Source: a bacterium
Lineage (GTDB): Bacteria > Patescibacteriota > Minisyncoccia > UBA6257 > UBA9933
Direction: 5' to 3'
NCBI GenBank assembly: GCA_030693235.1
Contig: JAUYBE010000016.1
Location: forward strand, 35,917 to 99,916
DNA length: 64,000 nt
Shown here: positions 6,657 to 34,827 of the stretch, piece by piece
How positions within the stretch are numbered: position 1 is the first letter of the stretch
Layout of the letters: each line of letters opens with the position of its first letter
Notes under the pieces: model-generated
The model's input: the letters and a program-made list of their open reading frames with translations, nothing else
The model's database searches: none
What the model was told of the DNA's origin: nothing
Translations under genes and position numbers: made by a program

Positions 6657-6658
6657 AT

Positions 6659-7054: not shown

Positions 7055-7069
7055 AATTTGCGATATAAA

Positions 7070-7801: not shown

Positions 7802-7802
7802 T

Positions 7803-13718: not shown

Positions 13719-14771
13719 TTACTTAAAATAATTTTCAGCCGCGAATTTATATTGCTGAATAAATAATTCTTTAAATGCCCTGATATTATTTTGTTCATAA
13801 AAAAGTATTGTTGTTTTTTTGTAATCCGCTTCATCAACGCTTCTGTAAGAAAGCGGACAAATATTATGCGCTAAAAGAATGGCATTCCCGACAAGTCGCG
13901 CCGTTCTTTTATTGCCGTCTTCGAAGGGTTGAATATAAGACATCAAAAGCACCGCAATAAGCGCTTTTACGAAAGGATTTGACATTTTATTTATCAATGC
14001 TGTCGCGTTTTCCATTGCTTCACGCAATTGATATTCATTATCCAACGGCTTATATTTCGCGCCGACAACGCCAACGGCACGTTTTCTTATGTTATAAGAA
14101 ACATTTAATCCGGCAACCAATAAACGATGAATATCGCTTATTTTTCTAATTGTTATTTTTTTAAAATCGCTTTTATTGGCGAAAATATAATCAAGCGCTT
14201 TTTTGTGATTTAGAATCATTATCGCCTCTTCTTTTTTGTGCCCCCTGGCTTCTTTGCGCTCTTTAATAAGAATCTCCGTGTCTATCAAAGAATAAGTATT
14301 GCCTTCTATTTGAGAAGATTTCCAACTCAATTCAATCGTCAATCGCTCAAATTCTTTTTTTAAAATCGCCGGAGATAATTTTTTGATTCTTTTAATATAA
14401 TCATCTTTTATTTTTTGCAAATCAGCTAATTCATCTTCGCTTAAAATATTATTCAAGTCTTTAAAAACGCCGAAATTAAATCTTTCAAAAGCCACCCGCC
14501 TTTCATCCGGTCCTTTTTTAAAATATTCATCAATATCAATATAACCAAGCAATTTGCTTTCAACGGCTTCCTGATAATAGACCCCTCGGCCTTTGCCGAT
14601 TTTTTTAATCAATCCGTTATTCGCAAGAATATTGATATCTCTGACAACAGTAATTCTGGAAAGTTCTCCGAATATTTTTTCCGCATAATTTTTAATTTCT
14701 TTATTGCCGGCTTTCCCGCTTTTTCTAATAAATTCAAGAATTTTAAATTGACGAGCAGTTAATTTTTCCAT
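13719..14771 (-). CDS. Fic/DOC (Fido) family protein with N-terminal winged-helix; degenerate Fic motif
   Basis: The core motif reads QPFEDGNKRTAR in place of HPFx(D/E)GNGRxxR, so the catalytic His is replaced by Gln and the second Gly by Lys. The N-terminal KILEFIRKSGKAGNKEIKNYAEKIFGELSRITVVRDINILANNGLI resembles a wHTH. Confidence 0.7.
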   Translation of the reverse strand: MEKLTARQFKILEFIRKSGKAGNKEIKNYAEKIFGELSRITVVRDINILANNGLIKKIGKGRGVYYQEAVESKLLGYIDIDEYFKKGPDERRVAFERFNFGVFKDLNNILSEDELADLQKIKDDYIKRIKKLSPAILKKEFERLTIELSWKSSQIEGNTYSLIDTEILIKERKEARGHKKEEAIMILNHKKALDYIFANKSDFKKITIRKISDIHRLLVAGLNVSYNIRKRAVGVVGAKYKPLDNEYQLREAMENATALINKMSNPFVKALIAVLLMSYIQPFEDGNKRTARLVGNAILLAHNICPLSYRSVDEADYKKTTILFYEQNNIRAFKELFIQQYKFAAENYFK

Positions 14772-14909: not shown

Positions 14910-15614
14910 TTAATATTTTTTATTTCTATTTTTAATTGTTTTTGTCACCCAATCATCCAATAAATCGCAGTTTGGAATAATGCAATGACCGCCGATTTTA
15001 CCGGACATTGCTCTTAAAATCGGCCGAATAACATTTAATTTGCCTAATTTTCTGTACCCCTCATTATAATCTTGATTGGCGATTGTATAAGCTTCATCAA
15101 AATCCAATTTTAATTTATCACTTATTCTTTTTACTTCTTTGGCAAAAATTATATTCCAACCATAATAAGTCGTGTCTAAAATTTTTAGCAGCTCTGTGGT
15201 TTCCGACTTTTTAAAACGCTTTGTTTTTATGCCTATTTTTGAAAAATATCGCGCCGCTTCTTTGGCTTTTTCTCCGCCGAAATATTTTACAAAAGTTTTA
15301 ATCCCTTTTTCCAAGCGGGGATGCACGCCGCGAACAGGGCTATGCACGGCAAAAGAAGATATTTTTTGCGTTGTCCCGACAGGAATTGTTGAATGAATTA
15401 TAACTAACTTAGGATTATATTCCTTAATATAATTTTTAGTAATATTTATAAAATTTTTAACGGGGGGATAACAAATGTGCAGAATATCAAAATCCCCTTT
15501 TAAATCGCTGTCTTTATCTCTAATAGAAATATCATAATGCTTTTTTAAAACATTAAAGAGAGCGCTCCCTATTTCTCCCCTGCCTATAATTAAATGTTTT
15601 TTATTTTTTTTCAT
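14910..15614 (-). CDS. hypothetical NAD(P)-binding protein with UDP-glucose/GDP-mannose dehydrogenase-like motifs (short form)
   Basis: IIGRGEIGSAL Rossmann motif, DILHICYPP, and a C-terminal GGHCIIPNCD resembling the GGxCxPKD catalytic-Cys motif. At 234 aa it is much shorter than canonical UGDH. Confidence 0.3.
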   Translation of the reverse strand: MKKNKKHLIIGRGEIGSALFNVLKKHYDISIRDKDSDLKGDFDILHICYPPVKNFINITKNYIKEYNPKLVIIHSTIPVGTTQKISSFAVHSPVRGVHPRLEKGIKTFVKYFGGEKAKEAARYFSKIGIKTKRFKKSETTELLKILDTTYYGWNIIFAKEVKRISDKLKLDFDEAYTIANQDYNEGYRKLGKLNVIRPILRAMSGKIGGHCIIPNCDLLDDWVTKTIKNRNKKY

Positions 15615-16779
15615 TAATAATAGATTGATATTCTTCTAAGAATTTTTTGGAAATTTTATCTTCTGAAAATTCTCCTTCAACAAGAATTTTACCATTTTCC
15701 CCCATTTTTTTACCCATACCGGCGTTTTCTAACAACGAAATAATCGCCTCACTCAATTCAGCCTCATTTTTCTCAACAACAATGCCGGCTTTAGCGCTCA
15801 CAATATAAGAAGAAATTCCAACCCCTTTTGTAACTACCACGGGCTTGCCCACGGACATCGCTTCAACTACAGACATTCCAAAGCTTTCCGAATACGAAGG
15901 CATAACAAAAATATTACTGTCTTGAAGGGCCGCAATTTTTTCTCCTCCCGCAAGCATACCGGCAAATAACACGCTTTTATCTAATTGGTATCTTCCGATA
16001 AGCTCATTAATTGTTTTTTTAAATCCATCATCTCCTCCCGCGATAACAAGAATCGCTTCGGGATGTTTTTTGACAACTGTCTTAAACGCCGGGACAAGAG
16101 TGTCAAATCCTTTTATCCAGCTCAATCTTCCTAAATATATTACGATTTTTTTATCGTCAGATATATTAAATTTCTTTCTAAAATAACCGCTAGGAAAATT
16201 TTCCGCTATTTTTTCTAATTTAACAATATTTGGAAGAACAATAGATTTTTTCATTGGAAATTTCCCTTTAATATATTCTTCCTCCTCTGTTGGAACAGTA
16301 AAATGAATCGCGGCCGCGCCTCGTAAATTTCTTTTTTCAATCAGCCAATTATATATGGATTTTTTGAAATTTTTCTTTCCCAACGGACTTAGCATAAGAT
16401 TGCCTCTGGGTGAAATGATATACGGTTTTTTAAATTTCTTCGCGTAATACGCGCCAAGCGTTGAAGCGGAAAGAAAAACAGAAGTGATATGAATTAAATC
16501 AAATTGTCCAGAATTTTTCGCAAGAGCTTTATGTAAATCGCGCGAATAAAACCAAGCGCGGGGAAAAGAACTTTTAAAATAAAAAACTTTCACTCCGTCT
16601 ACCATAACCGGTACTCCGGTAGGCGCATTTAAATCATTCGGACCGTCAATATTGGTCGTATAAACAGTCACTTCAGCGCCGGCTTTTGCCAATCCGACAT
16701 TCAAGCTATGGACGCTTTCAATCGGCCCGCCATAACGATGAGCCGGAATATAACTAGGAACTATGTGTAAAATTTTCAT
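15601..16779 (-). CDS. glycosyltransferase family 4
   Basis: N-terminal Glyco_trans_4-like region plus C-terminal ESFGMSVVEAMSVGKPVVVTKGVG. Confidence 0.8.
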   Translation of the reverse strand: MKILHIVPSYIPAHRYGGPIESVHSLNVGLAKAGAEVTVYTTNIDGPNDLNAPTGVPVMVDGVKVFYFKSSFPRAWFYSRDLHKALAKNSGQFDLIHITSVFLSASTLGAYYAKKFKKPYIISPRGNLMLSPLGKKNFKKSIYNWLIEKRNLRGAAAIHFTVPTEEEEYIKGKFPMKKSIVLPNIVKLEKIAENFPSGYFRKKFNISDDKKIVIYLGRLSWIKGFDTLVPAFKTVVKKHPEAILVIAGGDDGFKKTINELIGRYQLDKSVLFAGMLAGGEKIAALQDSNIFVMPSYSESFGMSVVEAMSVGKPVVVTKGVGISSYIVSAKAGIVVEKNEAELSEAIISLLENAGMGKKMGENGKILVEGEFSEDKISKKFLEEYQSIINEKK

Positions 16780-18067
16780 TTTTTCGCTTTATTAAAAAAT
16801 AATGTATTATCAGCAATAATATAAAAATTTTGACCAATCCCGCGTAAACCGGCGCAATCCAATCTTCCATTCCCTTGATAATATTAAGCCATAAAATACT
16901 ATAAATCATTACTCCCGAGAACGAGATGCCGGTTCTTTTGATAAGATATTCATAAATCAAACGAAACAGCATTCCCATAAAAAACATTCCGAAAATAATG
17001 CCTAAAACGCCAAAATTCATATACCAGTCGCCAACAATAGTCACCCCAACGGTTGATTTTACGCTCGGCGCTAAAAGACCCGAACGGTGTCCAAAGTCGC
17101 CGCCTCCGCTGATAATGGGCTTATTCGTCCAAATAAATCGAGGGGGTCCCAAGCTGATAAAAAAATTCAATAATGGTTTGCCGTACAATAAAGGCTCATC
17201 CATTTCAACAATTCTTGAGAAAACAGTAAATTGGTCTATTCTGGAAAAAATACTGTCAAAAGTAAGGTTGCCCGCGTTTTTAGCATAAGTCAAAGAATTT
17301 TCTATGTTTTCAATTGGTCTTTCCGCCAATGAATAATGGCGTAAAATTTCCGGACTTCGGCAAGCATTGCCAAGTGGAAATACTACAATTATTGCTCCTA
17401 AAATTATAATAACAATCTGTTGCCAAGTAACGCGTGAAAAATAAGATTTCAATATAAGATAAAGAATAATCGGCATTATTACGGAAGTTCGATTGCATGA
17501 CGGCAAAGTGTAAACCATTTCCAATATAAATGTTCCCCAGGCTATTTTTTGCCACAAACGATAACGCGCGTCGTTGTTTTTTTTGAAATAAAAATAACTT
17601 GTAAACGCAATAATCAGGGCGACATAAGACAACCAATCAAAAATTCCAAGCAAGCTGTAAAAAGGACTATTTTGAAACCATGGATTTTGTTGCCAATAAG
17701 AATAAACTCCGCCGAAAATTCTTAAAATTTTTATACCCAAGCCCAAAACAAAGACAACCCCAAAAACCCAAAACGCTTTTTTAAAATCCCACTCTGAATC
17801 TAATTTTAAAAATTTAGGTAGCCGTCCGGCAATAGAAGATGTTTGGCGATTATAATACCCGATCGCAAAAAAAATAAGGCCAAGAGTTAGATAAAAAAGC
17901 GCCTTATAATAAACAACTGAATTTTCCCATAAAAATCCGCGAACGCCGAAAAAAAACAAAATTGACGTAAAATAAAAAATAAAAAAATAATACAATATGA
18001 CGGAATTGCCAAGTTCAAAAAAATCAAAAGATTTTACCTTATTTTTGAGCCAAACCGCTATTTTCAT
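16754..18067 (-). CDS. polytopic membrane protein, putative O-antigen polymerase (Wzy-like)
   Basis: 437 aa, at least 10 predicted TM helices. Its position in a glycan locus next to Wzx and GTs supports the call. No strong motif. Confidence 0.45.
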   Translation of the reverse strand: MKIAVWLKNKVKSFDFFELGNSVILYYFFIFYFTSILFFFGVRGFLWENSVVYYKALFYLTLGLIFFAIGYYNRQTSSIAGRLPKFLKLDSEWDFKKAFWVFGVVFVLGLGIKILRIFGGVYSYWQQNPWFQNSPFYSLLGIFDWLSYVALIIAFTSYFYFKKNNDARYRLWQKIAWGTFILEMVYTLPSCNRTSVIMPIILYLILKSYFSRVTWQQIVIIILGAIIVVFPLGNACRSPEILRHYSLAERPIENIENSLTYAKNAGNLTFDSIFSRIDQFTVFSRIVEMDEPLLYGKPLLNFFISLGPPRFIWTNKPIISGGGDFGHRSGLLAPSVKSTVGVTIVGDWYMNFGVLGIIFGMFFMGMLFRLIYEYLIKRTGISFSGVMIYSILWLNIIKGMEDWIAPVYAGLVKIFILLLIIHYFLIKRKNENFTHSS

Positions 18068-19999: not shown

Positions 20000-20914
20000 T
20001 TATTTGTTTACGCGCTTAGCAAAAAGCATTCCCACATACATATCTTTATATTCCCCTTGTCTCTCCGGAACATAGACGTGGGTTGGTTTTGTATAGCTGA
20101 CTGCAAACCCTGCCGCATTTAATCGCCTTTCCAAATTTTCAAACCCGTAATGATATTCTGCGATGAAAAATTCAAACCGTCGAAGAAATTCATCTTTGGT
20201 ATTCTCCAAGATGTCGTATTCCCAACCTTCACAATCTATTTTCAGTACGCCGTCACTAATATTATATTTTTCAACTATTGACTCAATAGTTATCACAGGA
20301 ACATCATGAGTAAAATCAAACTCACTCTTAATTGATGAATATGCTCCAATCACGACCTTAAAAAATGGGTCAAAAGAAATGTCCGCAAGTATAGTGCGAC
20401 CGACGCCAGCATGGATAATATCACAAACAGAATCCAGTTGATTTAATGAAATATTTTCTCGTGCTAACCCAACGCAACTCAGTACAGGTTCGATACCAAC
20501 AACCTTCTTGGCGCCAAGTGTCGCGAAATACACGGGCGTGTCGCCAAACGAGGCGCCGATATCAACTACGACTCTGTTTGATAAATCTATTCCTTTCAAA
20601 AAAACTTCGTAGCTTCCCCATCCAAAAACCTCACAAAGAGAAATTGGTTCAAAATTGCCGCAATTAAATACTAATGTTTTGCCTTTATAATTTATAGTCG
20701 CCCTCGTTCCTTCGATTTTTCCATCCGGAAAATATCTAAAAAAATCTAAATTATGAACGAACATCCCGAAGGTTTGGGTATTTACTTTAATTGAAAATCC
20801 ACTGCGAAAGCGCGCAGTCGCGCCTCTTTTCAAAATGATTGAACCCAAAATTACAGACGGCCAATTCTTCACATAAAGAATAATCTTGATGGCAACTTTC
20901 AATTTTCCAAACAT
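20000..20914 (-). CDS. FkbM-family methyltransferase
   Basis: VVDIGASFGDTPVYFATLGAKKVVGIEP, a Methyltransf_21-type motif. Confidence 0.65.
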   Translation of the reverse strand: MFGKLKVAIKIILYVKNWPSVILGSIILKRGATARFRSGFSIKVNTQTFGMFVHNLDFFRYFPDGKIEGTRATINYKGKTLVFNCGNFEPISLCEVFGWGSYEVFLKGIDLSNRVVVDIGASFGDTPVYFATLGAKKVVGIEPVLSCVGLARENISLNQLDSVCDIIHAGVGRTILADISFDPFFKVVIGAYSSIKSEFDFTHDVPVITIESIVEKYNISDGVLKIDCEGWEYDILENTKDEFLRRFEFFIAEYHYGFENLERRLNAAGFAVSYTKPTHVYVPERQGEYKDMYVGMLFAKRVNK

Positions 20915-21135
20915 AGTAATAATTGTATATAGTTTAACGATTTATTTAAAAATGCTTTTGTTTATATTTTTAATATCTGACACCATCATTATCTGAACCA
21001 ATTCTTCGAATTTTATTTCAATTTTCTCCGGCGAACACACGAATGCCGGGCCAATCACAACATATTTGTGCCAATCCAAACCCATTATAAAATTACAAAG
21101 TTTCTCTTTTGTCTCTTTTCCCTTATAAAACTAAG

Positions 21136-22137
21136 TTATTTCTCTTCTTCAATAATTCTGATATCTTCTCGCACCATCATTTTTATTAATTCCTCAATTT
21201 TCGTTTTAGGCTGCCAATTCAATTTATTTTTTATTTTTGAAATATCGGCAACCATCGGAATATCACCTTCTTTTCTAAAAAATTCGTCGCTGACAACGAC
21301 ATATTTTCCCCAATCAAGACCGACTTCTTTAAACGCTATATCTAAAATATCTTTTACGGAATGAATTTCACCTGTGCCAATAACATAATCGTCCGGCTTA
21401 TCGGCCTGAAGCATTAACCACATAGCTTCAACATAGTCGCCGGCGAATCCCCAGTCGCGCATTGCGTCCAAATCTCCAAGCTTTAATTCTTGCTGCAATC
21501 CTTTTTTAATTCTTGCCGCGGCTTGAATAATTTTCCGCGGAAGAAATTTGGAATCTCTGCGCGGAGATTCATGATTAAATAAAATTCCAAAACACGCGAA
21601 AATTCCGTATGCCTCCCGATACATTTCAACAAGATTACAACCGGCTGTTTTCGCAATACCATAAGGAGTTATTGGATTCTTCGGAGTATTTTCGTCCTGG
21701 GGAGAAACAGCAGGATTACCAAATACAAGACTTGAAGAAGCAAAATAAAATTTTGCTTTGGGAGTATATTCTTTTATGGCGCCAAGAATATTATGAACGC
21801 CGCTCATATTATTATGCAAAATATTAAATTCCGTATCAAAAGAAACAAGAGTGTCCACAATTGCCGCCAAGTCATATATTTCATCCGGTTTTACTTCTGC
21901 AATTACTTCGCGAATTCTTTTTGTATCCGTAATATCCCCTTGGTGCAAGATTATCTGCGGGAAAATGTGATTAATTCTAAAAAAATCTTGCAAATTATTC
22001 TCATTTGGCAATTCGAGCACAAGACCATGTACCTCATATCCTTTTTCAAGTAAAAATTCTGCCAAATAAGAACCATCTTGACCTGCTATTCCGGTTATAA
22101 GCGCTTTTTTCATTATAGTATTAACGAACAACTTCAC
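21136..22137 (-). CDS. GDP-mannose 4,6-dehydratase-like SDR paralog lacking the catalytic Glu (candidate GDP-4-keto-6-deoxyhexose reductase, Rmd-like)
   Basis: [28 protein letters not shown]-terminus identical in pattern to Gmd. The active-site segment reads FASSSLVFG, against [11 protein letters not shown] in the adjacent canonical Gmd. YGIAK (YxxxK) is retained. Confidence 0.6.
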
Positions 22138-23155
22138 CTTTTAATTCGTTTTCAACCATAATTTTGACCAGCTCTTTAAACTTCACCTTCGGCTCCCAAC
22201 CCAATTTCTCTTTCGCCTTTGAATAATCGCCTATTAAAATATCTACTTCAGCCGGTCTGAAATAGCGGGGATCAATTTCAATAATTGTTTCCCCTGTTTT
22301 GCGGTCAATTCCTTTTTCGTCTAAACCGCTGCCTTCCCAAATCAAATCAAAATCCAATAATTTGCACGCTTCTTCGACAAATTCCCTGACAGTATGATTT
22401 TCATTAGTTGCCAAAATATAATCATCTGGTTTATCTTGTTGGAGCATCAGCCACATTCCCTCAACATAATCTTTTGCGTATCCCCAATCTCTTTTGGCGT
22501 TAAGATTGCCTAAATATAATTTTTCCATTTCTCCGCGCTTGATTTTAACCAAATTACTGGTAATTTTTCTTGTCACAAAATTCTCTCCTCGACGCGGCGA
22601 TTCGTGATTAAATAAAATTCCATTAGAAGCATGCATGCCATAGCTTTCGCGATAATTTACCGCCATCCAATAAGCATAAACTTTTGCCGCGCCATAAGGA
22701 CTGCGAGGATGAAACGGCGTAGTTTCTTTTTGAGGGACTTCTTGAACCAATCCAAACATTTCAGAACTTGATGCTTGGTAAAAGCGCGTATTGGGGCTGT
22801 CATGACGAATAGCTTCTAATAGTCTAGTCGTCCCAAGAGCAGTTGTATTACCGGTAAATTCCGGAATATCAAAACTGATGCGAACATGGCTCTGCGCTCC
22901 CAAATGATATAATTCGTCCGGCCGGACATCTTTTATAATCCGATGAAGAGAACTTGAATCGGTTAAATCGCCATAATGAAGAAAAATTTTATGTTTTGCG
23001 CGATGAATATCCGGGGTTAAATGCTCAATCCTTTGCCTGTTAAAAGTGCTCGCGCGCCTGACAATGCCGTGAACATTATAGCCCTTTTCTAAAAGCAATT
23101 CTGCCAAATATGATCCGTCTTGACCGGTAATTCCGGTAATTAAAGCTTTTTTCAT
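22121..23155 (-). CDS. gmd: GDP-mannose 4,6-dehydratase
   Basis: [44 protein letters not shown] ... [11 protein letters not shown] ... [10 protein letters not shown] ... [20 protein letters not shown]. Confidence 0.85.
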
Positions 23156-23163
23156 GTTAAAAA

Positions 23164-24432
23164 TTAATCAACTATTTGAAATTCCGGCAAAGGAACGATA
23201 AATTTGCCTCCATTTTTTAAATATTCAGATTCTCTTTCTTTAAATTCTTTAAGAAAATGCCATGGCAAAATCAAAAAATAATCCGGTTTTTCAGCGCGCG
23301 CCTGTTCTTCTGAAATAATGGGGATGTTCGTCCCCACGGTTTTTTTGCCCCACTTGGCCGGATTTCTCTCCGCAGCAGCAGTGATAATGGTATAGTCAAG
23401 ATTAAAATATTGCAAAAGTGTATTACCCTTAGTTGAAGCGCCGTAAACATATATTTTTTTACCTTTTTCCGCTTCTCCTTTTATGAAATTGGACACTTTT
23501 CTTTTTATTTCCTCAACCCGCGCTACAAAATCATCATAAATTTTCCGGTCATTTAGTCCTAAATCAGTTTCATATTTCCTTAAGTCCTCCACTCTATTTT
23601 GGGCGCCTTCTGAAATTTTAATTGTTTTCCCACGACCAGCATGCCGAATATAAATACGGAAACTTCCTCCATTAATATCATTTAATTCAACATCAAAAAC
23701 TTCCAAACTATGTCTTTTTAAAAGATTTTCAAGCGATAAAAGCGAATAATATTCCAGATGCTCGTGACATATATTATCAAACATATTTTTAACAAGCATA
23801 GATGGCAAATACGCCATCTGGATTATAAACACTCCGTCATCATGAAGGCATTTTACCACATCGGAAACAAATTTATTGGGATCATCCAAATCATAAAACA
23901 TCGCAATCGCAGTGGTTGCCTTTGCCTTGGTGTCTCCAAATTCTTTCTGCCACGCCTCATAACCAAAAAAGTCGTTGATTATTTTCTTTGTGCCTACACT
24001 ATTATATTTTTCCAAATTTTTCGCGGGTTCAAATCCAGTCCGATTTAATCCGGGAAATTTATAACCGCGCAATAAAGTGCCATCATTTGCTCCAATATCT
24101 ATGACAAAATCTTCCGGCTCAAAAGGAATTAACGACTCAACTTTTGCCGCGATTCCATTCAATTCATCCGTCATAGTTTTATTCGTGCCTGAAATGTACC
24201 AATAACGCCTGTACATCACTTCCTCTGAAACCGTGTGCTTCAACTGCAAAAGCCCGCAACCTCCATCACGTTCATTGCAAAGGACTAATTCCAATGGAAC
24301 TTTTTCCGCCTCGCTTTTCTCGCTTTCTTCCAAAAAGTCAGAAATATATAAATCACCCAAAGAAATAATTGGAGTTAGTTTTTTAAAACCGCAAGCACGG
24401 CAATTGTTTATAATTCTTGAAATAGCGCTCAT
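23164..24432 (-). CDS. NDP-sugar C-methyltransferase-like protein (TylC3/NovU family: N-terminal zinc-binding domain + class I MTase + C-terminal C-methyltransferase domain)
   Basis: N-terminal CRACGFKKL...GDLYISDF...C...GGCGLLQL matches the putative Zn-binding domain of sugar C-methyltransferases. [13 protein letters not shown] is SAM motif I. 422 aa. Confidence 0.55.
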
Positions 24433-24467: not shown

Positions 24468-25529
24468 CTATTTAAAAAGCGGCTTTGAATTTTCGCCAAA
24501 AATCCATTTCCTGTGGCTGAAAAACACTTTATAAATTTTAAATAAAATTTTATTAACCCAAAGCGGCATTAAAAATAACGGCATTGCAATCCAAAATTCA
24601 GGAAAATTCCAATAATATTTAAACATTCTCCACCGTTTACCTTTTGGCGTATCCCAACCGCCAACCCAAGCTACCAGCATTCCGCGCCAAAGAGAAGCAA
24701 AATTTACAGATAAAATTTTCCGGATAGCTCCTTGGCTAAATTTGTCTTTGAATTCCATCATAATATCATAAAAATCTATGCCATAAGAACTGAATGCTAT
24801 ATTTTCTATGATATCCATTTTGACAAAACTCTTTTTAAATTCTTCTGGAGTTGTTGGGTGACATAATATATATGGACCGCGAAGAAAATAAAAATCTCCT
24901 GGCTGAGAAATTATATATAAAATAGGAACGAGCCCGGCAAAAGAAAATCCGACTATATGTTTTTTTGCAAGAGCCAAAGATGGCAACGCCCTCTCGCGTT
25001 TAACAATTTGAGTTGACGTAAGCCCGATATTGAGCCCGAGGGTATCTAGGATTTCATTCCCGTCTTTAAAAAAACCGTCAGCTCTCACAACTGCCGGATT
25101 GCCCAATTTTTGAAAATCAAAATTAGCCCACATAAATGAAATCTGGGGATATTTTTTTATTAATTCCAAAACTCGAGCAATGGCACCTGGACGCATCTCA
25201 TCGTCATCGCAAAACCACCACACATATTTACCGCGCGCGCGCTCTAATAAAAGTAAATTGGCCGCATCAACTCCAATTTTTTCACCTTTTAAATAATTGA
25301 AATTCCATTTTCTTCTCGCCTTGACCTTTTCAAAAATCTCTTGTGTGGCATAATCCGTACTATCATCTCTGATCACTAACTCTACTTCTCCTGTAATTTG
25401 TGGCGCCAACCCAAACAACAATCGCTCAAATTCTCGCGGCCTATTATATGTTGGAATACAAATACTCAACAAATAATTATTCGCGGAGGCCTTATTTAAT
25501 TTATTTTCTTTCTTATTATTCATTAACAT
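24468..25529 (-). CDS. glycosyltransferase family 2
   Basis: LSICIPTYNRPREFERLLFGLAPQ...VELVIRDDSTD...WWFCDDDE (DxD). Confidence 0.7.
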   Translation of the reverse strand: MLMNNKKENKLNKASANNYLLSICIPTYNRPREFERLLFGLAPQITGEVELVIRDDSTDYATQEIFEKVKARRKWNFNYLKGEKIGVDAANLLLLERARGKYVWWFCDDDEMRPGAIARVLELIKKYPQISFMWANFDFQKLGNPAVVRADGFFKDGNEILDTLGLNIGLTSTQIVKRERALPSLALAKKHIVGFSFAGLVPILYIISQPGDFYFLRGPYILCHPTTPEEFKKSFVKMDIIENIAFSSYGIDFYDIMMEFKDKFSQGAIRKILSVNFASLWRGMLVAWVGGWDTPKGKRWRMFKYYWNFPEFWIAMPLFLMPLWVNKILFKIYKVFFSHRKWIFGENSKPLFK

Positions 25530-25533
25530 CCTT

Positions 25534-26466
25534 CTAATTAGTTTCCTGTTTTTTTATTCTTCCGATTAAAATCGCGTTCGCAAATGGAAATGGAAAATTA
25601 AACTTTACATTTTTTACTTCATCCCAAGAGGCTTCACACCAGCGATTAAATGACTTACGAAGTAGAAACCGACAGGAATAAGTGTTCAGCTTGTTTGTTT
25701 CTATATACAAATTAAGTTGAGGGTTATAACCAATGGGTACGGTAAAAAATATTTCACCTCTATCGACTAAACAATTTTTTATCAAGTTATCAATACCGAG
25801 TAAAAGTTTTCCTTGTCCGTTTGAGGATTTTCCGCCGTATTCATTTTCATCCCAACCGACATGTTCAAAAGTAGAAACGCTTATGATTATGTCATATTTT
25901 TTCTTTGGAATATAACTTACGATATCCTCATTTATAATGCCTTTTTGAACCTCGTATTTATCTAAAACATCGTAGCCGGAGCCCCCGTAACGCCACAAAA
26001 CATTTCCTACTTCCAATATATTCAGTCCTTTTATTTGTGCTTCTTTGACTACAGCTAAGGCGATTGGAACTTCCACCCTCCTTTCATTTCTCCATATATC
26101 CGGATGGCACGAATATTCAAAATAAATATCATTGAGCTTAAATCTACCGGGCCAAAAAAAACAACGAATAGACCTAAAAAAACGAGTACACACGGCCCAA
26201 ACATTTCGCCGAACTGCATTTATTGTATAAATAAGCCCGTGTTTTCTATAAACCCTTTTTGCATCACTAATAATTTTATTAGGAGCGAAGTGGATAATTA
26301 TTTTTTCTTCGCGACCATTTCTAAACCTTGTTTTAAATTCGGTGTTCCCACTTGGATGACCCAACGTAACAGAAAACCAATTTTGGGTTGATTTTATAAT
26401 GTGGGAAAAAAGTTTTACCTTGTTGAACATAAAATCTATTCTATCCTGCAAGTTACACCTCGTCAA
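25534..26466 (-). CDS. hypothetical protein, possibly a methyltransferase-like enzyme
   Basis: Weak MTase-like segments (ILEVGNVL...YDIIISVSTFEHVGWDE). Low confidence. Confidence 0.3.
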   Translation of the reverse strand: MTRCNLQDRIDFMFNKVKLFSHIIKSTQNWFSVTLGHPSGNTEFKTRFRNGREEKIIIHFAPNKIISDAKRVYRKHGLIYTINAVRRNVWAVCTRFFRSIRCFFWPGRFKLNDIYFEYSCHPDIWRNERRVEVPIALAVVKEAQIKGLNILEVGNVLWRYGGSGYDVLDKYEVQKGIINEDIVSYIPKKKYDIIISVSTFEHVGWDENEYGGKSSNGQGKLLLGIDNLIKNCLVDRGEIFFTVPIGYNPQLNLYIETNKLNTYSCRFLLRKSFNRWCEASWDEVKNVKFNFPFPFANAILIGRIKKQETN

Positions 26467-26491: not shown

Positions 26492-27541
26492 TTACAAAGT
26501 TTTTTCTAACATTTTTGAAAGCTGCGACTTCATGCTATACCCACTCTTCAAACAACGCTCTCTTCCGGCGGACGCGATTCTCTTTCTCTCTTCTTCGCGC
26601 TCCAAATAGTATTTCACTTTTTTAAACATTTCCTCATTTGAGCTAAAAAATTCGGCCTCTTTCCCCTCTTCAAAAAATTCCAAATGACGCTTCGTGCGCT
26701 CTCCCAGCATAAACCCGCCGCAGGCCGGTATCTCAACGCTTCTCGAGGTAACCTCATCGCGATTTATCTTTCGCAAAAAATTAAGATTGATTTTGGTAGC
26801 GGAAATTGCTTTTGCATAATCAGAGCCAAAAAGAAATTTATTTTTCACATCAAGGTTTTTGTGGCGATTAATCCACGCGTCCCAACCGCTGCCCCACACT
26901 GCGACTTTCACGCCATGCTCGGCAAGATACAAAAGCGATTCAGCTCTTTCTTTCTCAAATGCTCCGATCGCGCTCACATCGCAGGAAAACCGCGCCTTTT
27001 CTTCGTCAGTTAGTTGTATTGGCTTATGCGCGTTCTCACTATACGAATCCAAGAAAAGTTCCGTTCTCTTGGCACCGAGAGATTTCAACTCCTCGAGATT
27101 ATAAGTTTTGGTCGTAAAGACAACCTCGTAGTATTTAAGTCCCCACATGTAATGAAAAGACCTGTTGTGTTTAGCGTACATATCATCCTCCGAAACAGAA
27201 ATTAATTTTGCCTCCGACAAATGCTTTTTTATAAATTTTAGAGTCGCCGGCAGAATCGTGTTCCCTTTTTCTATCCAAACTACATCAAATTTATCTTTGA
27301 GAACTTCTTGCTTTATTTTTTTATTTACACCAACCATGTCCACCGGAATTTTTAATCGCCAAGAAATAACCTCAATTAAACTTCGATTCTTCCGTGGACT
27401 CCATGGAACCTCGGTATGAGAAATTCCAAAAACCTCGCGACCTAACCCAATTAAGGTTTCATATCTTTGAAAACCGCGCCCATACTCGTTTAGATCTCCA
27501 ACATATAGAATCTTAAGGTTTTTACTATTTTTCCGTTTCAT
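26492..27541 (-). CDS. CgeB-family glycosyltransferase-like protein (DUF3880/Glyco_trans_1_2-type)
   Basis: The C-terminal region EIPACGGFMLGERTKRHLEFFEEGKEAEFFSSNEEMFKKVKYYLEREEERKRIASAGRERC is typical of the CgeB family. Confidence 0.45.
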   Translation of the reverse strand: MKRKNSKNLKILYVGDLNEYGRGFQRYETLIGLGREVFGISHTEVPWSPRKNRSLIEVISWRLKIPVDMVGVNKKIKQEVLKDKFDVVWIEKGNTILPATLKFIKKHLSEAKLISVSEDDMYAKHNRSFHYMWGLKYYEVVFTTKTYNLEELKSLGAKRTELFLDSYSENAHKPIQLTDEEKARFSCDVSAIGAFEKERAESLLYLAEHGVKVAVWGSGWDAWINRHKNLDVKNKFLFGSDYAKAISATKINLNFLRKINRDEVTSRSVEIPACGGFMLGERTKRHLEFFEEGKEAEFFSSNEEMFKKVKYYLEREEERKRIASAGRERCLKSGYSMKSQLSKMLEKTL

Positions 27542-29365: not shown

Positions 29366-31228
29366 TTAAAATTTATTTAAAACCGCTTTCGCCCAAGAAC
29401 GGGACCAATGGGATTTAGTATTTTGTATTTGGTATTTTGTATCTTGTATCTCGCGAAGCCAGTTTTGAAACGGAAAAGTAAAACCCATTTTTGGACGGGT
29501 GAAAATTTCTTGAGGCAATAAATCGCGAACCGCGGCGACGAGAAGGGGCTTATTTATGTTTTTTAGTTCTTTAGTTTTTAAGTTTTTAAGTTTTAAGTTT
29601 GCGGGCAAACTGCTTAAATATTCAACCAGCGGGTGGTCCAAAAACGGCACCCGGACTTCAACCGAATGACGCATTGACATAAAATCGGTGTCTTTAAGCA
29701 ATTGGTTTTGAAGATAGAATTTAAGTTCAAGATAGGAAAGAAGGCCAATTGGATGTAATTGTTCTAAGTGTTGTAATTGATGCGATAATTTATCTATAAA
29801 ATTATTTACTTCTTGAACATTAGTATCTAAAATCTTCGCGGTTTCTTGAGGAGTGAATAAGCCCCTAATCCCTAAATAAAAACTTAAAATATCGTCATTG
29901 GTAAAATAACTTAATTTAGAATACTTGTCGCCAAATAAACTGCCCAATTTTAGCGGAGATTTTAAAAATTTCGGCAAATTCTGGATTTTTCTTAGTAATT
30001 CCGCCCGGCGAAAATGCGGATAACCCAAAAATATTTCATCCGCTCCTAGTCCGGAAAGAACGGTTTTTAACCCGGCCTGCTTGGCCGCCTTGGCGATAAA
30101 AAAAGTGTTGACGCCGTCTATTGTCGGCTGATCCATCGCTTCAAAAATTTCTTCAAACGAATCGTAAAAATCCTGTTTTGTTATCTTTATTTTGCGATGG
30201 TCGCTGCCTATCTTTTTTGCGACCAAGTCCGAATAATATTCTTCGGAAAATTCTGGTTCGTCGAAAATAATTGATAAAGTTTTAAGACGCTGATTTTTTA
30301 TAGTTTGAGCCGCCAGCGCCGCAATCACCGACGAATCCAATCCGCCGCTTAAAAATACGCCCAAAGGCGCGTCGCTGATAAGATGAAGATTGACGGATTC
30401 TTCTAAAAGACTTCGAATACTATCACGTGTGATAGTATTATCCTGAAAGTTCTGTGTTTTGTTTTTGAAAAATTCTAAAGGCTCATAATATTGAATTAAT
30501 TTTTGACTGCCGTCAGCTTCTCGGACTAAATAATGTCCGGCCGGCACAGCATAAACATTTTTTATCGTAGTTGTCGGTAACGGCACCGAGCCGAAAAGTA
30601 AAAAACCGATATAAGCGTCGGGGTTTTTTTGAACCAGTATTATTCCGCTGTTTTCCAGCGCCTTAACCGTTGAAGCGAAAATTAATTTTTCATTATCCGA
30701 ATAATAATAAAGGGGTTTAATGCCGTATCTGTCTTTAACTAAAAATAATTTTTGATTTTTGCCATCCCAAAGTCCAAAAGCGAACATCCCGCGAAGCATT
30801 TCAAAAGATTTTTCGCCGCATTCGGCGTATAAAGCTAAAATCACCTCGGTATCGGTTTTTGTTTTGAATTTATATCCCTTTTTCTCTAAATCTTTTTTTA
30901 ATTCCAAAAAATTATAGATTTCTCCGCTGTAGGTTATTACTAATGTCTGGACATCCGACGTCCTAAAATTACCGCCAATATTTGGGACGTCGGATGTCCT
31001 TAAAATTGACCCATTTTGCCAAATCATCGGTTGGTGGCCAGACTTTGAAAGGTCGATAATAGAAAGCCGGGAGTGCCCCAGCGCAACACCGTTTTTTACA
31101 TCAACAAAAACGCCTTCGTCGTCTGGACCGCGATTTTTCTGGGAGGTGTTCATTTTCCCCGCTGCCGCTTCCAAATCTTTTTTATTATAAATTTTTTTAT
31201 TTTGATAAATTCCGGCAATGCCGCACAT
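29366..31228 (-). CDS. asnB: asparagine synthase (glutamine-hydrolysing), glycan-locus amidotransferase type, carrying in-frame repeat insertions
   Basis: MCGIAGIY N-terminal nucleophile, SGGLDSS PP-loop, 620 aa. Insertions: family-2 palindrome 30949-30999 (RTSDVPNIGGNFRTSDVQ), and tandem oligomers at 29560-29600 (LKLKNLKTKELKN) and 29425-29455 (IQDTKYQIQNTK). Confidence 0.85.
   Translation of the reverse strand: MCGIAGIYQNKKIYNKKDLEAAAGKMNTSQKNRGPDDEGVFVDVKNGVALGHSRLSIIDLSKSGHQPMIWQNGSILRTSDVPNIGGNFRTSDVQTLVITYSGEIYNFLELKKDLEKKGYKFKTKTDTEVILALYAECGEKSFEMLRGMFAFGLWDGKNQKLFLVKDRYGIKPLYYYSDNEKLIFASTVKALENSGIILVQKNPDAYIGFLLFGSVPLPTTTIKNVYAVPAGHYLVREADGSQKLIQYYEPLEFFKNKTQNFQDNTITRDSIRSLLEESVNLHLISDAPLGVFLSGGLDSSVIAALAAQTIKNQRLKTLSIIFDEPEFSEEYYSDLVAKKIGSDHRKIKITKQDFYDSFEEIFEAMDQPTIDGVNTFFIAKAAKQAGLKTVLSGLGADEIFLGYPHFRRAELLRKIQNLPKFLKSPLKLGSLFGDKYSKLSYFTNDDILSFYLGIRGLFTPQETAKILDTNVQEVNNFIDKLSHQLQHLEQLHPIGLLSYLELKFYLQNQLLKDTDFMSMRHSVEVRVPFLDHPLVEYLSSLPANLKLKNLKTKELKNINKPLLVAAVRDLLPQEIFTRPKMGFTFPFQNWLREIQDTKYQIQNTKSHWSRSWAKAVLNKF
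30949..30999. repeat. twin-palindrome element, family 2, in-frame in asnB
   Basis: ggacatccgacgtcc taaaattaccgccaatattt gggacgtcggatgtcc. Same architecture as 13299-13350. Confidence 0.7.
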
Positions 31229-31827: not shown

Positions 31828-32394
31828 TTACTGATTTAATATCGCTTTCACCCTCTCATCTTCCGGCCAGTATTTAAGAATTTTTTCGCCGATTTTCCGC
31901 GTGTTTTCCTCGTCGCCTCTTAAACGGTATAGATCAAATAAATTATAAAGAACCGGCGGGAGTTTCGGACCATAAATCAAGGCCTCGCGATAATATTCTT
32001 CTGATTTTAGAAAATCGTTTTCATTACCTGATTTCTCCCATAAAAAGAAATATATCTGAGCCAAAATAAGGAGATGCCTTGTTTCATCTTTTCTCATTTT
32101 TGGCTCTAAATATTCAACTAAATAACGCGAGGCAATTTCTGGATTTTTAGGATTAGCCACCGCATTGACTAAATTATTTCCCAAAAACCTTGCCGCCTCG
32201 TAATCGCCAATCGGCGAATAAAAACCGAAAAGCTTGTCAAAAACTTTCTTAAAGTCTTCCGGGGTTTTCAGAGACGGCATTTGGTAAGCTGATTTTATAT
32301 AAAGTTGAGCCTTTTTAAAAGGCAAAATAGAACCAAAATAGATTGCGAATAAAACAATGACAATGACTATGACAATGATAATTTTTTTAATCAT
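31828..32394 (-). CDS. hypothetical membrane-anchored helical-repeat protein
   Basis: N-terminal TM (IIIVIVIVIVLFAIYFG), then helical TPR-like repeats. Confidence 0.35.
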   Translation of the reverse strand: MIKKIIIVIVIVIVLFAIYFGSILPFKKAQLYIKSAYQMPSLKTPEDFKKVFDKLFGFYSPIGDYEAARFLGNNLVNAVANPKNPEIASRYLVEYLEPKMRKDETRHLLILAQIYFFLWEKSGNENDFLKSEEYYREALIYGPKLPPVLYNLFDLYRLRGDEENTRKIGEKILKYWPEDERVKAILNQ

Positions 32395-34356: not shown

Positions 34357-34827
34357 TTAATAGTTTAAAGACGGGTGGTCTTTTGGCAAAGCAGAGCGGA
34401 TTAATTCTTTTATTTCTTTTTGTTTTTCGTCTACCGGTTTTTTAAATTTTAAACCTTTATACTTTGAAACTTTTAAGCCGCCTATGAACTTGAAAATTAA
34501 AGCCGAGACGTATTTTGCCAATTCAACCCCGTCTTTTAATTCTTGAGCGCTGATATAGCCTTGATCAAACGCCACATAAAGTTGGGCGCGGACTTCGCCG
34601 CAGGACGCTTTGGCTATATAGAGAAAATAAAGAATTTCTTCCTTACCTCCTCGCTCAAAACCCTCGGCGATATTTGACATTACCGAGACAGCGGCGCGGC
34701 GGATTTGGTCGATTAAGCCGAAGTCGCGGCTGAATTCCAACTTTCGCGTATAACTATAAATCAATTTAACTAATTCGCGAGATTTTTGCCAGACGAACAA
34801 ATCTTCGAAAGATTTTGCGCTGCTCAT
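34357..34827 (-). CDS. four-helix-bundle protein (23S rRNA intervening-sequence protein family)
   Basis: DLFVWQKSRELV, SNIAEGFERG, KASCGEVRAQLYVA. Flanked on both sides by AAAGTTTAA-type tandem repeats. Confidence 0.75.
   Translation of the reverse strand: MSSAKSFEDLFVWQKSRELVKLIYSYTRKLEFSRDFGLIDQIRRAAVSVMSNIAEGFERGGKEEILYFLYIAKASCGEVRAQLYVAFDQGYISAQELKDGVELAKYVSALIFKFIGGLKVSKYKGLKFKKPVDEKQKEIKELIRSALPKDHPSLNY

Follow-up and report, generated by a model that had tools for sequence, protein, structure and literature searches.

Background

C-methyl branched deoxysugars are textbook dTDP-linked products of actinomycete antibiotic clusters, while for a GDP-linked route there is so far only a hypothesis, concerning virenose, the virulence sugar of Q fever. 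Three adjacent genes in the window (the whole stretch of 64,000 nucleotides that was analysed) raise the question whether an uncultured bacterium, probably of the candidate phyla radiation (CPR), encodes such a route. We know of no biochemical test of any enzyme in a GDP-linked C-methyl route and of no demonstrated GDP-dependent sugar C-methyltransferase; to our knowledge, all characterised members of the methyltransferase family concerned take dTDP sugars as substrates, and essentially nothing experimental is known about the surface-glycan chemistry of CPR bacteria. For virenose (6-deoxy-3-C-methyl-D-gulose) of Coxiella burnetii, the proposed GDP route employs CBU_0689 (Gmd), CBU_0688 (GDP-fucose-synthase-like, hereafter GFS-like) and CBU_0691, a C-methyltransferase of the TylC3 type (PMC3539893). 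This is an in-silico proposal, and as late as 2026 the pathway was termed 'not fully characterized' (PMC13252051).

Organization of the gene trio

The trio is located on the minus strand and comprises, in the 5' to 3' direction, a putative NDP-4-keto-hexose C-methyltransferase of 422 aa (C-MT, 23164-24432) assigned to the TylC3/TcaB9/MtmC family by Pfam and PDB matches, a GDP-mannose 4,6-dehydratase gene (gmd, 22121-23155) assigned by TIGR01472, PF16363 and motifs, and a gene for a 325-aa Gmd-derived paralog devoid of the catalytic Glu (21136-22113), placed by PF16363, alignment, clade membership and a structural model. The stop codon of the C-MT gene and the start of gmd are 8 nt apart, and 7 nt separate the end of gmd from the paralog. 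The mechanical open reading frame of the paralog reaches a GTG at 22137 (21136-22137), but translation almost certainly begins with the ATG at 22113 (MKKALITG...), since the overlap with gmd then disappears, the 7-nt spacer is left, the product agrees with P0001, a database protein of 325 aa, and on an identical Logan contig the gene was called in the same way. The preliminary description regarded sugars of this kind as rare outside dTDP pathways of secondary metabolism; more than 600 stretches with a matching module were found among JGI metagenomes (a lower bound), and the module is common in environmental genomes.

The middle gene had been described as a canonical gmd, which was borne out by a TIGR01472 score of 556.5 bits (equivalog cutoff 415), a PF16363 match at 1e-151 and the motifs ASSSEMFG (Ser-x-Glu), PYGAAK (YxxxK), VRRAS (the RR loop) and NHESPRRG. 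On such strong homology the product can be taken as a bona fide GDP-mannose 4,6-dehydratase.

The candidate C-methyltransferase

The 422-aa protein exceeds the Pfam cutoffs for Methyltransf_13, i.e. the Zn module (45.3 bits, cutoff 31.3), for Methyltransf_23 (43.4 bits, cutoff 27) and for Methyltransf_14, the C-terminal domain of C-methyltransferases (163.5 bits, cutoff 23.5), so its earlier assignment to the sugar C-methyltransferase type, and not to O- or N-methyltransferase families, was upheld. Among PDB sequences it matches MtmC (4rv9) from end to end (phmmer, 3.6e-58) and TcaB9 over the full length (~1e-33). With TylC3, EryBIII, TcaB9 and MtmC it shares the Zn-Cys4 module, the class I SAM domain, Methyltransf_14, SAM motif I and the pair Glu224-His225, known from the TcaB9 active site; it differs from them in its low identity to MtmC, in a 4-residue insertion within the second Cys pair and in the substitutions H181D and Y222C. 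The zinc-binding C11, C14, C52 and C59, the DIGANDG motif and E224-H225 do not vary across 120 homologs; positions 222-225 read CHEH, and H223 is also invariant in the clade. Both substitutions remove TcaB9 active-site residues (His181 and Tyr222) that were reportedly probed by mutagenesis, and these non-conservative changes are at least 90-95% conserved in the C-MT clade. MtmC is presumably the TylCIII-type enzyme of S. argillaceus with 4-ketoreductase activity, and its annotation as a bifunctional methyltransferase and ketoreductase implies that a separate reductase may be unnecessary. That activity of the S. argillaceus enzyme is cited in the virenose paper (PMC3539893).

The actinomycete enzymes belong to dTDP secondary-metabolite clusters, and the substrates of TylC3, EryBIII, TcaB9 and MtmC are 2,6-dideoxy or 3-amino sugars, whereas the clade of C-MT occurs in GDP-sugar surface-glycan loci of uncultured bacteria and archaea. 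Homologs of ~60% identity are found in DPANN archaea near a true RmlB (L004, 474 bits), so nucleotide specificity is not readable from the sequence. Genomic context favours GDP: among 80 metagenomic loci with members of the C-MT clade, a Gmd-family or GFS-like gene is present in 40 and RmlB in one, and among the loci of 10 kb or longer the figures are 22/32 and 1/32, respectively. We propose that C-MT is a GDP-4-keto-6-deoxymannose C-methyltransferase.

The Gmd paralog

The paralog matches PF16363 at 5e-107 and scores 336.3 bits with TIGR01472, under the cutoff of 415; a short-type Gmd in which the Glu is retained (L009) also stays below it (362.6 bits), which makes this cutoff alone a weak criterion. 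In GMD a Glu serves as the single acid/base of dehydration (review PMC8987622). MAFFT, phmmer and Foldseek alignments agree that this column is occupied by Leu in the paralog (ASSSLVFG). Retained are PYGIAK (YxxxK), the Ser-Tyr-Lys triad, the Rossmann GxxGxxG and NHESPRR, while AAIVDT stands for GAQSHV and PRRD for PRRG, and the RR loop is lost (VLELP). The AlphaFold model has a pLDDT of 95.5, its sole part of lower confidence being a remodelled loop (residues 81-100), and in a Foldseek search it retrieved GMD structures exclusively at ranks 1-31 (1rpn at TM 0.92-0.94). The Foldseek matches included 6gpk, human GMD E157Q crystallised with unreacted GDP-Man.

The preliminary description was right about the Gmd fold, the YxxxK and the loss of the Glu in SSSLVFG, but its likening of the protein to Rmd-like 4-ketoreductases did not stand. 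Rmd (2pk3) reads IGSSEEYG, i.e. it keeps the Glu; it appeared only at rank 32 with the model and aligns with the paralog at 2e-29 and ~27.5% identity, in comparison with 1e-86 to 1e-90 and 45-46% identity for GMDs, a wider range of 45-56% to true Gmds and an end-to-end alignment with P. aeruginosa GMD at 45% identity and TM 0.92-0.94. An Rmd-like enzyme was rejected on these grounds. Judging by its sequence, the paralog is a separate Gmd-derived lineage, a later offshoot of Gmd than RMD, and has the appearance of a short-type Gmd, similar to that of P. aeruginosa, turned into a reductase-only enzyme. The GMD of P. aeruginosa is itself reportedly bifunctional, combining dehydratase and 4-reductase activities (PMC3584063).

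The paralog falls into a monophyletic Glu-less clade (40 of its 120 best hits, mostly from CPR genomes), sister to the short-type Gmds. The clade shares about 20 signature positions and has a conserved acidic residue (Asp/Glu) at the His of the Gmd QSH; S-Y-K, GxxGxxG and NHESPRR are invariant in all 40 members, which together with the shared signatures argues against a decaying pseudoenzyme. Its members, at present auto-annotated as 'GDP-mannose 4,6-dehydratase', are very probably unable to dehydrate. We propose that the paralog is an NAD(P)H-dependent C4-ketoreductase of C3-modified GDP-4-keto-6-deoxyhexoses; we infer this role from the kept S-Y-K, the lost Glu and the genomic context, and not by homology transfer.

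Conservation in related loci

Related CPR genomes repeatedly carry the module of C-MT, Gmd and Glu-less paralog. In 10 of 11 loci, corresponding to 9 of 10 distinct paralog proteins, a C-MT gene is found no more than 6 kb from the paralog, and a ColD-type GDP-4-keto-6-deoxymannose 3-dehydratase (2gms match at 4e-64, with the His-His motif, His-for-Lys) adjoins the paralog in 7/11; these counts are partly pseudo-replicated, since the set includes many orthologous glycan clusters from CPR genomes. C-MT and ColD both modify C3 of the Gmd product. As the linkage to ColD is as tight as that to C-MT, the range of likely substrates of the paralog is wider, and the Glu-less clade appears to be specialised for C3-modified (3-C-methyl or 3-deoxy) ones. 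The nearest homolog of the paralog (P0002, 72% identity, locus L013) lacks a C-MT within 8 kb, which indicates that the paralog does not strictly depend on C-MT.

The order C-MT, Gmd and, where present, paralog is stable across relatives, while genes for NTP-transferase, HD-like, NUDIX and ColD proteins vary, and in one locus (L019) an additional SDR of 302 aa stands between the Gmd and paralog genes. In loci without the paralog a GFS-like SDR directly follows C-MT (L007, L010, L023-25, L052, L060 and others), which suggests non-orthologous replacement of a reductase. Several independent classes of Glu-less or QSH-less Gmd paralogs adjoin C-MTs in the metagenomic loci.

Neighbouring genes and the surface-glycan cluster

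Upstream of the trio, also on the minus strand, lies a GT2 glycosyltransferase gene (24468-25529, Pfam Glycos_transf_2), a candidate for transfer of the branched sugar; its homologs (41-62% identity) are directly upstream of C-MT in L014, L016, L017 and L019 and beside it in L021. The next ORF (25534-26430, minus strand, 298 aa) has no Pfam or NCBIfam match of its own, but 19 of 21 aligned homologs match Methyltransf_23, from which it is probably a divergent class I SAM methyltransferase. It is followed by a Glyco_trans_1_2 glycosyltransferase gene (26492-27541, minus strand, Pfam 3.6e-33), part of a conserved block upstream of GT2 and C-MT, whose homologs (55-66% identity) are correspondingly placed in L014, L016, L019, L021 and L022.

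Downstream of the paralog, the 221-bp spacer contains a decayed relic of a Gmd-like C-terminus (20942-21085, minus strand), a 47-codon ORF (MGLDWHKYVV...FEELVQIMM) matching the C-terminal 55 aa of the paralog with a tblastn value of 3e-5 in a very small search space; relatives have NUDIX or ColD at this position. Beyond it an FkbM-family methyltransferase gene (20000-20914, minus strand; PF05050, TIGR01444) probably accounts for O-methylation of the glycan, and FkbM genes occur also in L016, L017, L019, L020 and L022. Of the further methyltransferases listed earlier, those at 12115, 18039, 20000 (FkbM) and 27538 were confirmed, and the one at 25534 only as probable, through its homologs.

By gene content the trio belongs to a Wzx/Wzy-type surface-glycan cluster (1439-34322, both strands), with Bac_transf (1439-2848) and Wzx (2845-4314) on the plus strand and, on the minus strand, an FnlA/FnlC-like UDP-HexNAc set (5523-8837) including an FnlA-like 4,6-dehydratase (7803-8837), an O-antigen-polymerase-like protein (16754-18067), AsnB (29366-31228) and a Wzy_C protein (32391-34322). 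Eight glycosyltransferases (three GT4/GT1, four GT2 and one Glyco_trans_1_2) and 4-5 methyltransferases were counted. Neither rml, manC and DegT genes nor GDP-mannose pyrophosphorylase or ColD were found in the window, and with rmlA/B missing, Gmd is the cluster's only source of a non-acetamido 4-keto-6-deoxyhexose. A tblastn search of the window with the GFS-like protein of L007 detected no GFS-like gene, giving only weak SDR-level matches to Gmd, the paralog and an SDR at 7070-7801.

Discussion

The trio is, in our judgement, probably a GDP-linked branched-chain deoxysugar module making GDP-6-deoxy-3-C-methylhexose. A GDP-linked C-methyl-branched 6-deoxyhexose had been suggested as the product in the preliminary description; comparative genomics (recurrence of the module in CPR genomes, 40/80 against 1/80 loci) supports it, though no longer on the Rmd-like basis offered then. 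In the proposed pathway Gmd would, by strong homology, convert GDP-mannose to GDP-4-keto-6-deoxymannose. Glu224-His225 of C-MT would then deprotonate the carbon alpha to the C4 ketone, and the enolate so formed would attack SAM, giving presumably GDP-3-C-methyl-4-keto-6-deoxyhexose, with C3 as the most likely position by analogy with TylC3, TcaB9 and MtmC. Finally, the paralog would act as an NAD(P)H-dependent reductase on the C4 keto group, yielding GDP-6-deoxy-3-C-methylhexose; it has lost the Glu of 5,6-dehydration but kept the Rossmann motif, the redox triad Ser-Tyr-Lys and the NHESPRR motif for binding of the GDP-sugar. Candidate configurations are evalose (manno) and talo, or altro/ido if C3 inverts. 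Through the GT2 enzyme the sugar would enter a heavily O-methylated surface glycan of the Wzx/Wzy-assembled type, and the surrounding cluster would consume it.

The logic is that of the Coxiella proposal, in which Gmd supplies GDP-4-keto-6-deoxymannose, a TylC3-family enzyme branches it and an SDR finishes it within a surface-glycan locus (PMC3539893, PMC13252051). Loci L007 and L010 of CPR relatives have exactly the Coxiella combination of C-MT, GFS-like SDR and Gmd. In the window this module is incomplete: Gmd and C-MT are present, and a Glu-less Gmd-derived paralog takes the place of the GFS-like epimerase/reductase. Without the latter one would not expect 3,5-epimerisation, and the product should have another stereochemistry than virenose. 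The GMD/RMD pair for GDP-D-rhamnose in P. aeruginosa and Aneurinibacillus thermoaerophilus likewise couples Gmd to a related extended SDR for C4 reduction of GDP-4-keto-6-deoxymannose, as predicted here, but RMD (2pk3) keeps its Glu and is 27.5% identical to the paralog, which nests beside short-type Gmds. In comparison with the GDP-colitose pathway (Gmd, ColD, ColC), relatives have the ColD-type PMP-dependent 3-dehydratase right after the paralog, and the paralog fills the position of ColC as finishing reductase; ColC, however, is no Gmd derivative but a GFS-like epimerase/reductase, and the window has no ColD.

Several other readings have to be weighed. It is unlikely that the paralog acts as an Rmd/Tld analogue turning unmodified GDP-4-keto-6-deoxymannose into GDP-D-rhamnose or GDP-6-deoxy-D-talose, with C-MT working on another substrate or pathway and adjacency reflecting joint inheritance of the cluster. 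The combination of Gmd, paralog and ColD without C-MT in L013 would suit it, reduction of the unmodified 4-keto sugar has been reported for short-type Gmds (PMC3584063), and with so many orthologous loci co-occurrence is not independent evidence; yet the gene order persists amid gain and loss of its neighbours, unrelated C-MT loci are paired independently with other Gmd paralog classes or GFS-like reductases, and the FnlA product is the only other source of a 4-keto sugar for C-MT in the window. Rather improbable, too, is a paralog that is not a C4 reductase at all, being instead a C4 or C3/C5 epimerase, a keto-isomerase acting by transient oxidation, or a non-dehydrating subunit of a hetero-oligomer with Gmd, and leaving reduction to an MtmC-like C-MT or another SDR. 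An intact Ser-Tyr-Lys triad, together with loss of the one additional acid/base, classically marks a plain oxidoreductase (SDR motif table, PMC8987622), loss of the RR loop, the cofactor clamp of tetrameric GMD, fits cofactor exchange, and no other candidate reductase adjoins the trio in the window. These points stand against the hint of altered chemistry given by the acidic residue for the His of QSH and the remodelled loop, the extra SDR of L019 and the 4-ketoreductase activity reported for MtmC-type enzymes (PMC3539893).

We consider it very unlikely that C-MT takes a substrate other than a GDP sugar, be it a dTDP-4-keto-6-deoxyhexose whose synthesis is encoded elsewhere in the genome or a UDP-4-keto-6-deoxy-HexNAc from the FnlA-like enzyme. 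Its characterised relatives all use dTDP sugars, its archaeal homologs neighbour RmlB and the cluster does contain that 4,6-dehydratase, but in metagenomic loci RmlB is the exceptional neighbour and GDP-type enzymes the frequent one, rml genes are missing from the window, and C-MT is 8 nt away from gmd and 14 kb from fnlA. Hardly to be expected is the same pathway with methylation at C5, leading to a 5-C-methyl (gem-dimethyl) 6-deoxyhexose. The C5-H is likewise alpha to the C4 keto group, C5-methyltransferases of the NovU type belong to the same superfamily, and H181D and Y222C leave room for other regiochemistry; still, the best matches of C-MT are all C3-methyltransferases (MtmC, TcaB9), and NovU acts after 3,5-epimerisation, for which no epimerase is present here.

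Conclusions

Beyond the predicted GDP-linked module itself, we put forward more tentatively, as a possibility of slightly less than even chance, that the C-MT clade includes the first GDP-sugar-dependent C-methyltransferases and that the Glu-less Gmd-derived proteins form an unrecognised family finishing C3-modified (3-C-methyl and/or 3-deoxy) GDP-4-keto-6-deoxyhexoses. The trio is a minimal three-gene system, and among its relatives there are natural variants that have or lack ColD or a GFS-like SDR, so the GDP-route hypothesis becomes testable with recombinant enzymes; these may also be of use in glycoengineering with branched sugars activated by GDP. The analysis also flags a consistent group of database entries as mis-annotated 'GDP-mannose 4,6-dehydratase'. 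The proposal is a first concrete prediction on the surface-glycan chemistry of CPR bacteria, and if the more tentative reading is true, CPR bacteria, DPANN archaea and many other uncultured lineages would routinely carry on their surfaces branched-chain deoxysugars, hitherto known almost only from antibiotics and Coxiella.

Organization of the locus

The window contains one Wzx/Wzy-type surface-glycan cluster (about 4.3-34 kb) with every ORF on the minus strand, and within it three genes follow each other almost without spacing. The first encodes a 422-aa putative sugar C-methyltransferase (C-MT; 23164-24432, minus strand), in which a zinc module (Methyltransf_13) is combined with a class I SAM domain and Methyltransf_14. 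[quoted passage not shown] The mechanically defined ORF of the paralog begins at a GTG at 22137; its start is placed at the ATG at 22113, where the database protein also begins and where the gene was called on an identical Logan contig. For the paralog and the C-MT alike, the nearest relatives come from groundwater Patescibacteria (CPR).

Four accessory genes known from related loci, encoding ColD (GDP-4-keto-6-deoxymannose 3-dehydratase), NUDIX, NTP-transferase and HD-like proteins, were searched for in the window and none was found. The 221-bp spacer after the paralog carries a 47-codon ORF (20942-21085, minus strand; MGLDWHKYVVIGPAFVCSPEKIEIKFEELVQIMMVSDIK...), resembling the decayed C-terminus of a Gmd-like protein. 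Since relatives hold NUDIX or ColD at this place, the fragment probably marks where a gene was replaced or deleted.

Further genes of the cluster were also inspected. The set at 5523-8837 (minus strand), comprising a UDP-GlcNAc 2-epimerase (5523-6656), a 131-aa PF14667-matching protein (6659-7054), a short SDR (7070-7801) and an FnlA-like enzyme (7803-8837), looks like a UDP-L-FucNAc/L-RhaNAc-type pathway with a split or unusual middle enzyme. A 643-aa protein (32391-34322, minus strand) combines a Wzy_C (O-antigen ligase/polymerase) domain with a PD-(D/E)XK_3 nuclease-superfamily domain and adjoins a 23S-rRNA-IVP family protein (34357-34827); gene calls of locus L001 place a YafQ-toxin-like gene nearby, which makes an odd combination. 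The cluster also includes a Fic-domain protein (13719-14771, minus strand) and a 234-aa fragment-like protein (14910-15614, minus strand) that weakly matches the UDP-glucose/GDP-mannose dehydrogenase central domain.

The preliminary description proposed several additional methyltransferases, and those at 12115, 18039, 20000 (FkbM) and 27538 are counted here as well. Its fifth candidate, the ORF at 25534-26430 (minus strand), has no Pfam or NCBIfam match, and related loci lack it at the corresponding place; it is probably a divergent SAM methyltransferase, because its homologs (40-50% identity) mostly match Methyltransf_23.

The C-methyltransferase

The Methyltransf_13, SAM and Methyltransf_14 ("C-methyltransferase C-terminal domain") matches of the C-MT each exceed their Pfam cutoffs, and there is no match to O- or N-methyltransferase families, so the sugar C-methyltransferase assignment made from the sequence alone was borne out; no NCBIfam model matched the protein. 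Over its full length it aligns with MtmC (4rv9; 3.6e-58) and TcaB9 (about 1e-33). Over 120 homologs there is no variation in the four zinc cysteines, in SAM motif I (DIGANDG) or in the Glu224-His225 pair. By domain architecture and catalytic pair the C-MT is classified in the TylC3/TcaB9 family, from which it differs in genomic context and by clade-wide replacements at two TcaB9 active-site positions, His181 to Asp and Tyr222 to Cys.

The nearest homolog in the genome collection (L009:6001-7430, Patescibacteria H41-bin049; 85% identity) is divided into ORFs of 335 and 121 aa, which marks it as a pseudogene or as frameshifted. Behind it lies one Glu-retaining Gmd of the short type (P. aeruginosa-like), not a Gmd and paralog pair.

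The Gmd paralog lacks the catalytic glutamate

In the paralog SSSLVFG stands for the SSSEMFG of Gmd, which puts Leu129 in place of the catalytic Glu; motif residues were read from alignment columns, and phmmer, MAFFT and Foldseek alignments were concordant. Other replacements affect GAQSHV (AAIVDT in the paralog, with a new Asp88), PRRG (PRRD) and the Arg-Arg loop VRRAS (VLELP). The paralog preserves its Rossmann motif, Ser-Tyr-Lys triad and NHESPRR motif. Because this Glu is the single extra acid/base of GMD for dehydration (PMC8987622), and the crystal structure of human GMD E157Q contains unreacted GDP-mannose (6gpk), there is a strong case that the paralog has lost dehydratase activity.

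The AlphaFold model of the paralog, made from a 51-sequence alignment, reached a pLDDT of 95.5, with residues 81-100, the remodelled AAIVDT loop, as the sole softer stretch. Its best 31 Foldseek matches in the PDB are all GMDs (1rpn, TM 0.92-0.94, 45% identity). At the sequence level it is 46% identical to the neighbouring Gmd, 45% to P. aeruginosa GMD and 56% to Glu-retaining short-type Gmds.

The loss of Glu had been likened to that in Rmd-like 4-ketoreductases. This comparison does not hold: the GDP-D-rhamnose pathway 4-ketoreductase Rmd (2pk3; sequence obtained via the Rmd-like protein of locus L011) reads IGSSEEYG and keeps the Glu. It ranks 32nd in the Foldseek search, behind the GMDs, at 25% identity. 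At the sequence level, identity to the paralog is 45-56% for Gmds against 27.5% for Rmd, and identification of the paralog as an Rmd was rejected. As it also falls below the TIGR01472 cutoff and lacks the Glu, the paralog qualifies by these criteria as neither a Gmd nor an Rmd. A 302-aa SDR of locus L019, located between Gmd and a Glu-less paralog of the K clade, was likewise considered as Rmd and rejected, its best PDB matches being GalE-like epimerases (about 1e-17).

Extent and annotation of the Glu-less clade

The Glu is absent from 40 of the 120 best database matches to the paralog, with Leu or Met in 27 and Lys, Arg or Asn in 13. A neighbour-joining tree groups them in a single clade without any Glu-containing member, sister to short-type Gmds, and about 20 signature substitutions are common to them (e.g. 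G190D, V194L, T195P, N167M, E258D). Both NCBI and JGI label the clade proteins "GDP-mannose 4,6-dehydratase", which is probably wrong. Among the best 50 profile matches from 1.84 billion representatives (50% clustering) about seven were judged Glu-less by eye, the profile score itself not discriminating them from normal Gmds; the family is therefore real and of modest size.

The same matches included unusual architectures, noted among P0369, P0408, P0370, P0399, P0406 and P0407: a 741-aa Gmd-ColD fusion (P0408); a 1051-aa protein (P0369) in which N/T-rich linkers join a Glu-less Gmd-like domain, a middle region of cupin/RmlC-like appearance by eye and a normal Gmd domain; and several Gmds of about 670 aa with an intein-like insertion within the NHESPRR motif.

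Genomic neighbourhoods

Ten distinct Glu-less paralogs in eleven loci, the window included, were compared. A Methyltransf_13/14 C-MT lies within 6 kb of the paralog in 10 of 11 loci, a count partly pseudo-replicated as many loci are orthologous clusters, and most often GT2 is followed by C-MT, (NTP-transferase, HD-like protein), Gmd and paralog. Locus L013, whose paralog is the closest homolog of ours (72% identity), is the one without a C-MT nearby; there Gmd is followed by the paralog and then, overlapping by 4 bp, by a DegT-family gene. The DegT-family proteins of L013 and six other loci were rejected as transaminases: a match to 2gms (4e-64) and the diagnostic His-for-Lys motif FFVGHH[IL]S identify them as ColD-type 3-dehydratases. 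In the loci examined the Glu-less paralog is therefore always accompanied by enzymes modifying C3 of the Gmd product, be it C-MT, ColD or both.

Several relatives encode a conserved protein, about 235 aa long, between C-MT and Gmd (L014:6241-6948, L017:4235-4933, L018:4238-4945, L021:4136-4837), at times accompanied by an NTP-transferase or inositol-monophosphatase-family gene. It has no Pfam or NCBIfam match, its HDWYKR stretch might indicate an HD-type hydrolase, and no counterpart was found in the window.

A metagenome scan with the C-MT clade alignment gave more than 600 matching stretches. Among the 80 loci listed (45-65% identity), a Gmd-family gene or one similar to GDP-fucose synthase (GFS) lies within 8 kb of the C-MT in 40 and a dTDP-glucose 4,6-dehydratase (RmlB) gene in one; among those of at least 10 kb the respective figures are 22 and 1 of 32. 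Multiple C-MT loci hold a canonical Gmd and a second divergent Gmd paralog, of classes that are mutually independent. In eight loci (L058, L067, L077-L080, L086, L099) a paralog of one class (ADQDHV...PCTSNMFG...PRRT, Glu to Asn) stands immediately downstream of the C-MT, and single cases have Val (L066) or Trp (L097) for Glu.

Proposed pathway and alternatives

We consider it reasonably probable that the genes act in the order Gmd, C-MT, paralog and GT2. [quoted passage not shown] Through Glu224-His225 the C-MT would abstract the proton alpha to the C4 keto group of this product and methylate it from SAM, by analogy most likely at C3. The paralog, which keeps a complete SDR redox site and the GDP-sugar site and has lost the dehydration Glu, would serve as a reductase, using NAD(P)H at C4 to yield a GDP-6-deoxy-3-C-methylhexose of unspecified stereochemistry. 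The conserved GT2 (24468-25529) would transfer the branched sugar, and the four or five further methyltransferases would then decorate the glycan. A bifunctional role, dehydratase as well as 4-reductase, is reported for P. aeruginosa GMD (PMC3584063); loss of Glu from a duplicate Gmd would be a simple path to a dedicated reductase.

It is unlikely that the product of the paralog is plain GDP-D-rhamnose or 6-deoxytalose, with the C-MT unrelated to it; the L013 neighbourhood is compatible with this. Quite unlikely, too, is a role of the paralog as an epimerase, isomerase or non-catalytic partner, with reduction by a bifunctional C-MT; the remodelled loop would fit this reading, and the retained redox triad speaks against it. 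Methylation at C5 instead of C3 we regard as highly improbable; that position is also alpha to the C4 keto group, and the best matches of the C-MT (MtmC, TcaB9) are C3-methyltransferases.

The C-MT substrate could be a dTDP or UDP sugar. To our knowledge all characterised members of the C-MT family use dTDP sugars, which counts against a strict GDP assignment. So do archaeal homologs about 60% identical to the C-MT of the window and followed by GT4 (L004, L005, L006, L008; DPANN MAGs of Iainarchaeota/Diapherotrites type), as two of them (L004, L008) have dTDP-glucose 4,6-dehydratase-like genes close by, that of L004 being a confirmed RmlB (474 bits). These homologs point to inter-domain transfer, possibly with a different nucleotide carrier. 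Given the Gmd-family and GFS-like genes near the C-MT in 40 of the 80 listed loci, such a substrate is very unlikely for the window.

Relation to Coxiella virenose and significance

The closest precedent is the GDP route proposed in silico for Coxiella burnetii virenose, with Gmd CBU_0689, GFS-like CBU_0688 and C-MT CBU_0691 (PMC3539893), a pathway still described as "not fully characterized" in a 2026 preprint (PMC13252051). A literature search on GDP-linked 3-C-methyl sugars and Patescibacteria glycans returned nothing relevant beyond the Coxiella papers. The module of the window follows the same working logic, with a Gmd-derived Glu-less enzyme instead of the GFS-like epimerase/reductase of Coxiella. 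The gene combination proposed for Coxiella itself, C-MT followed by a GFS-like SDR, recurs in L007, L010, L023-25, L052, L060 and other loci.

Although not surprising in kind, the finding provides a minimal three-gene system for a hypothesis open since 2011-2012. It exposes a probably mis-annotated enzyme family together with what appears, from gene content, to be a widespread module for GDP-linked branched sugars.
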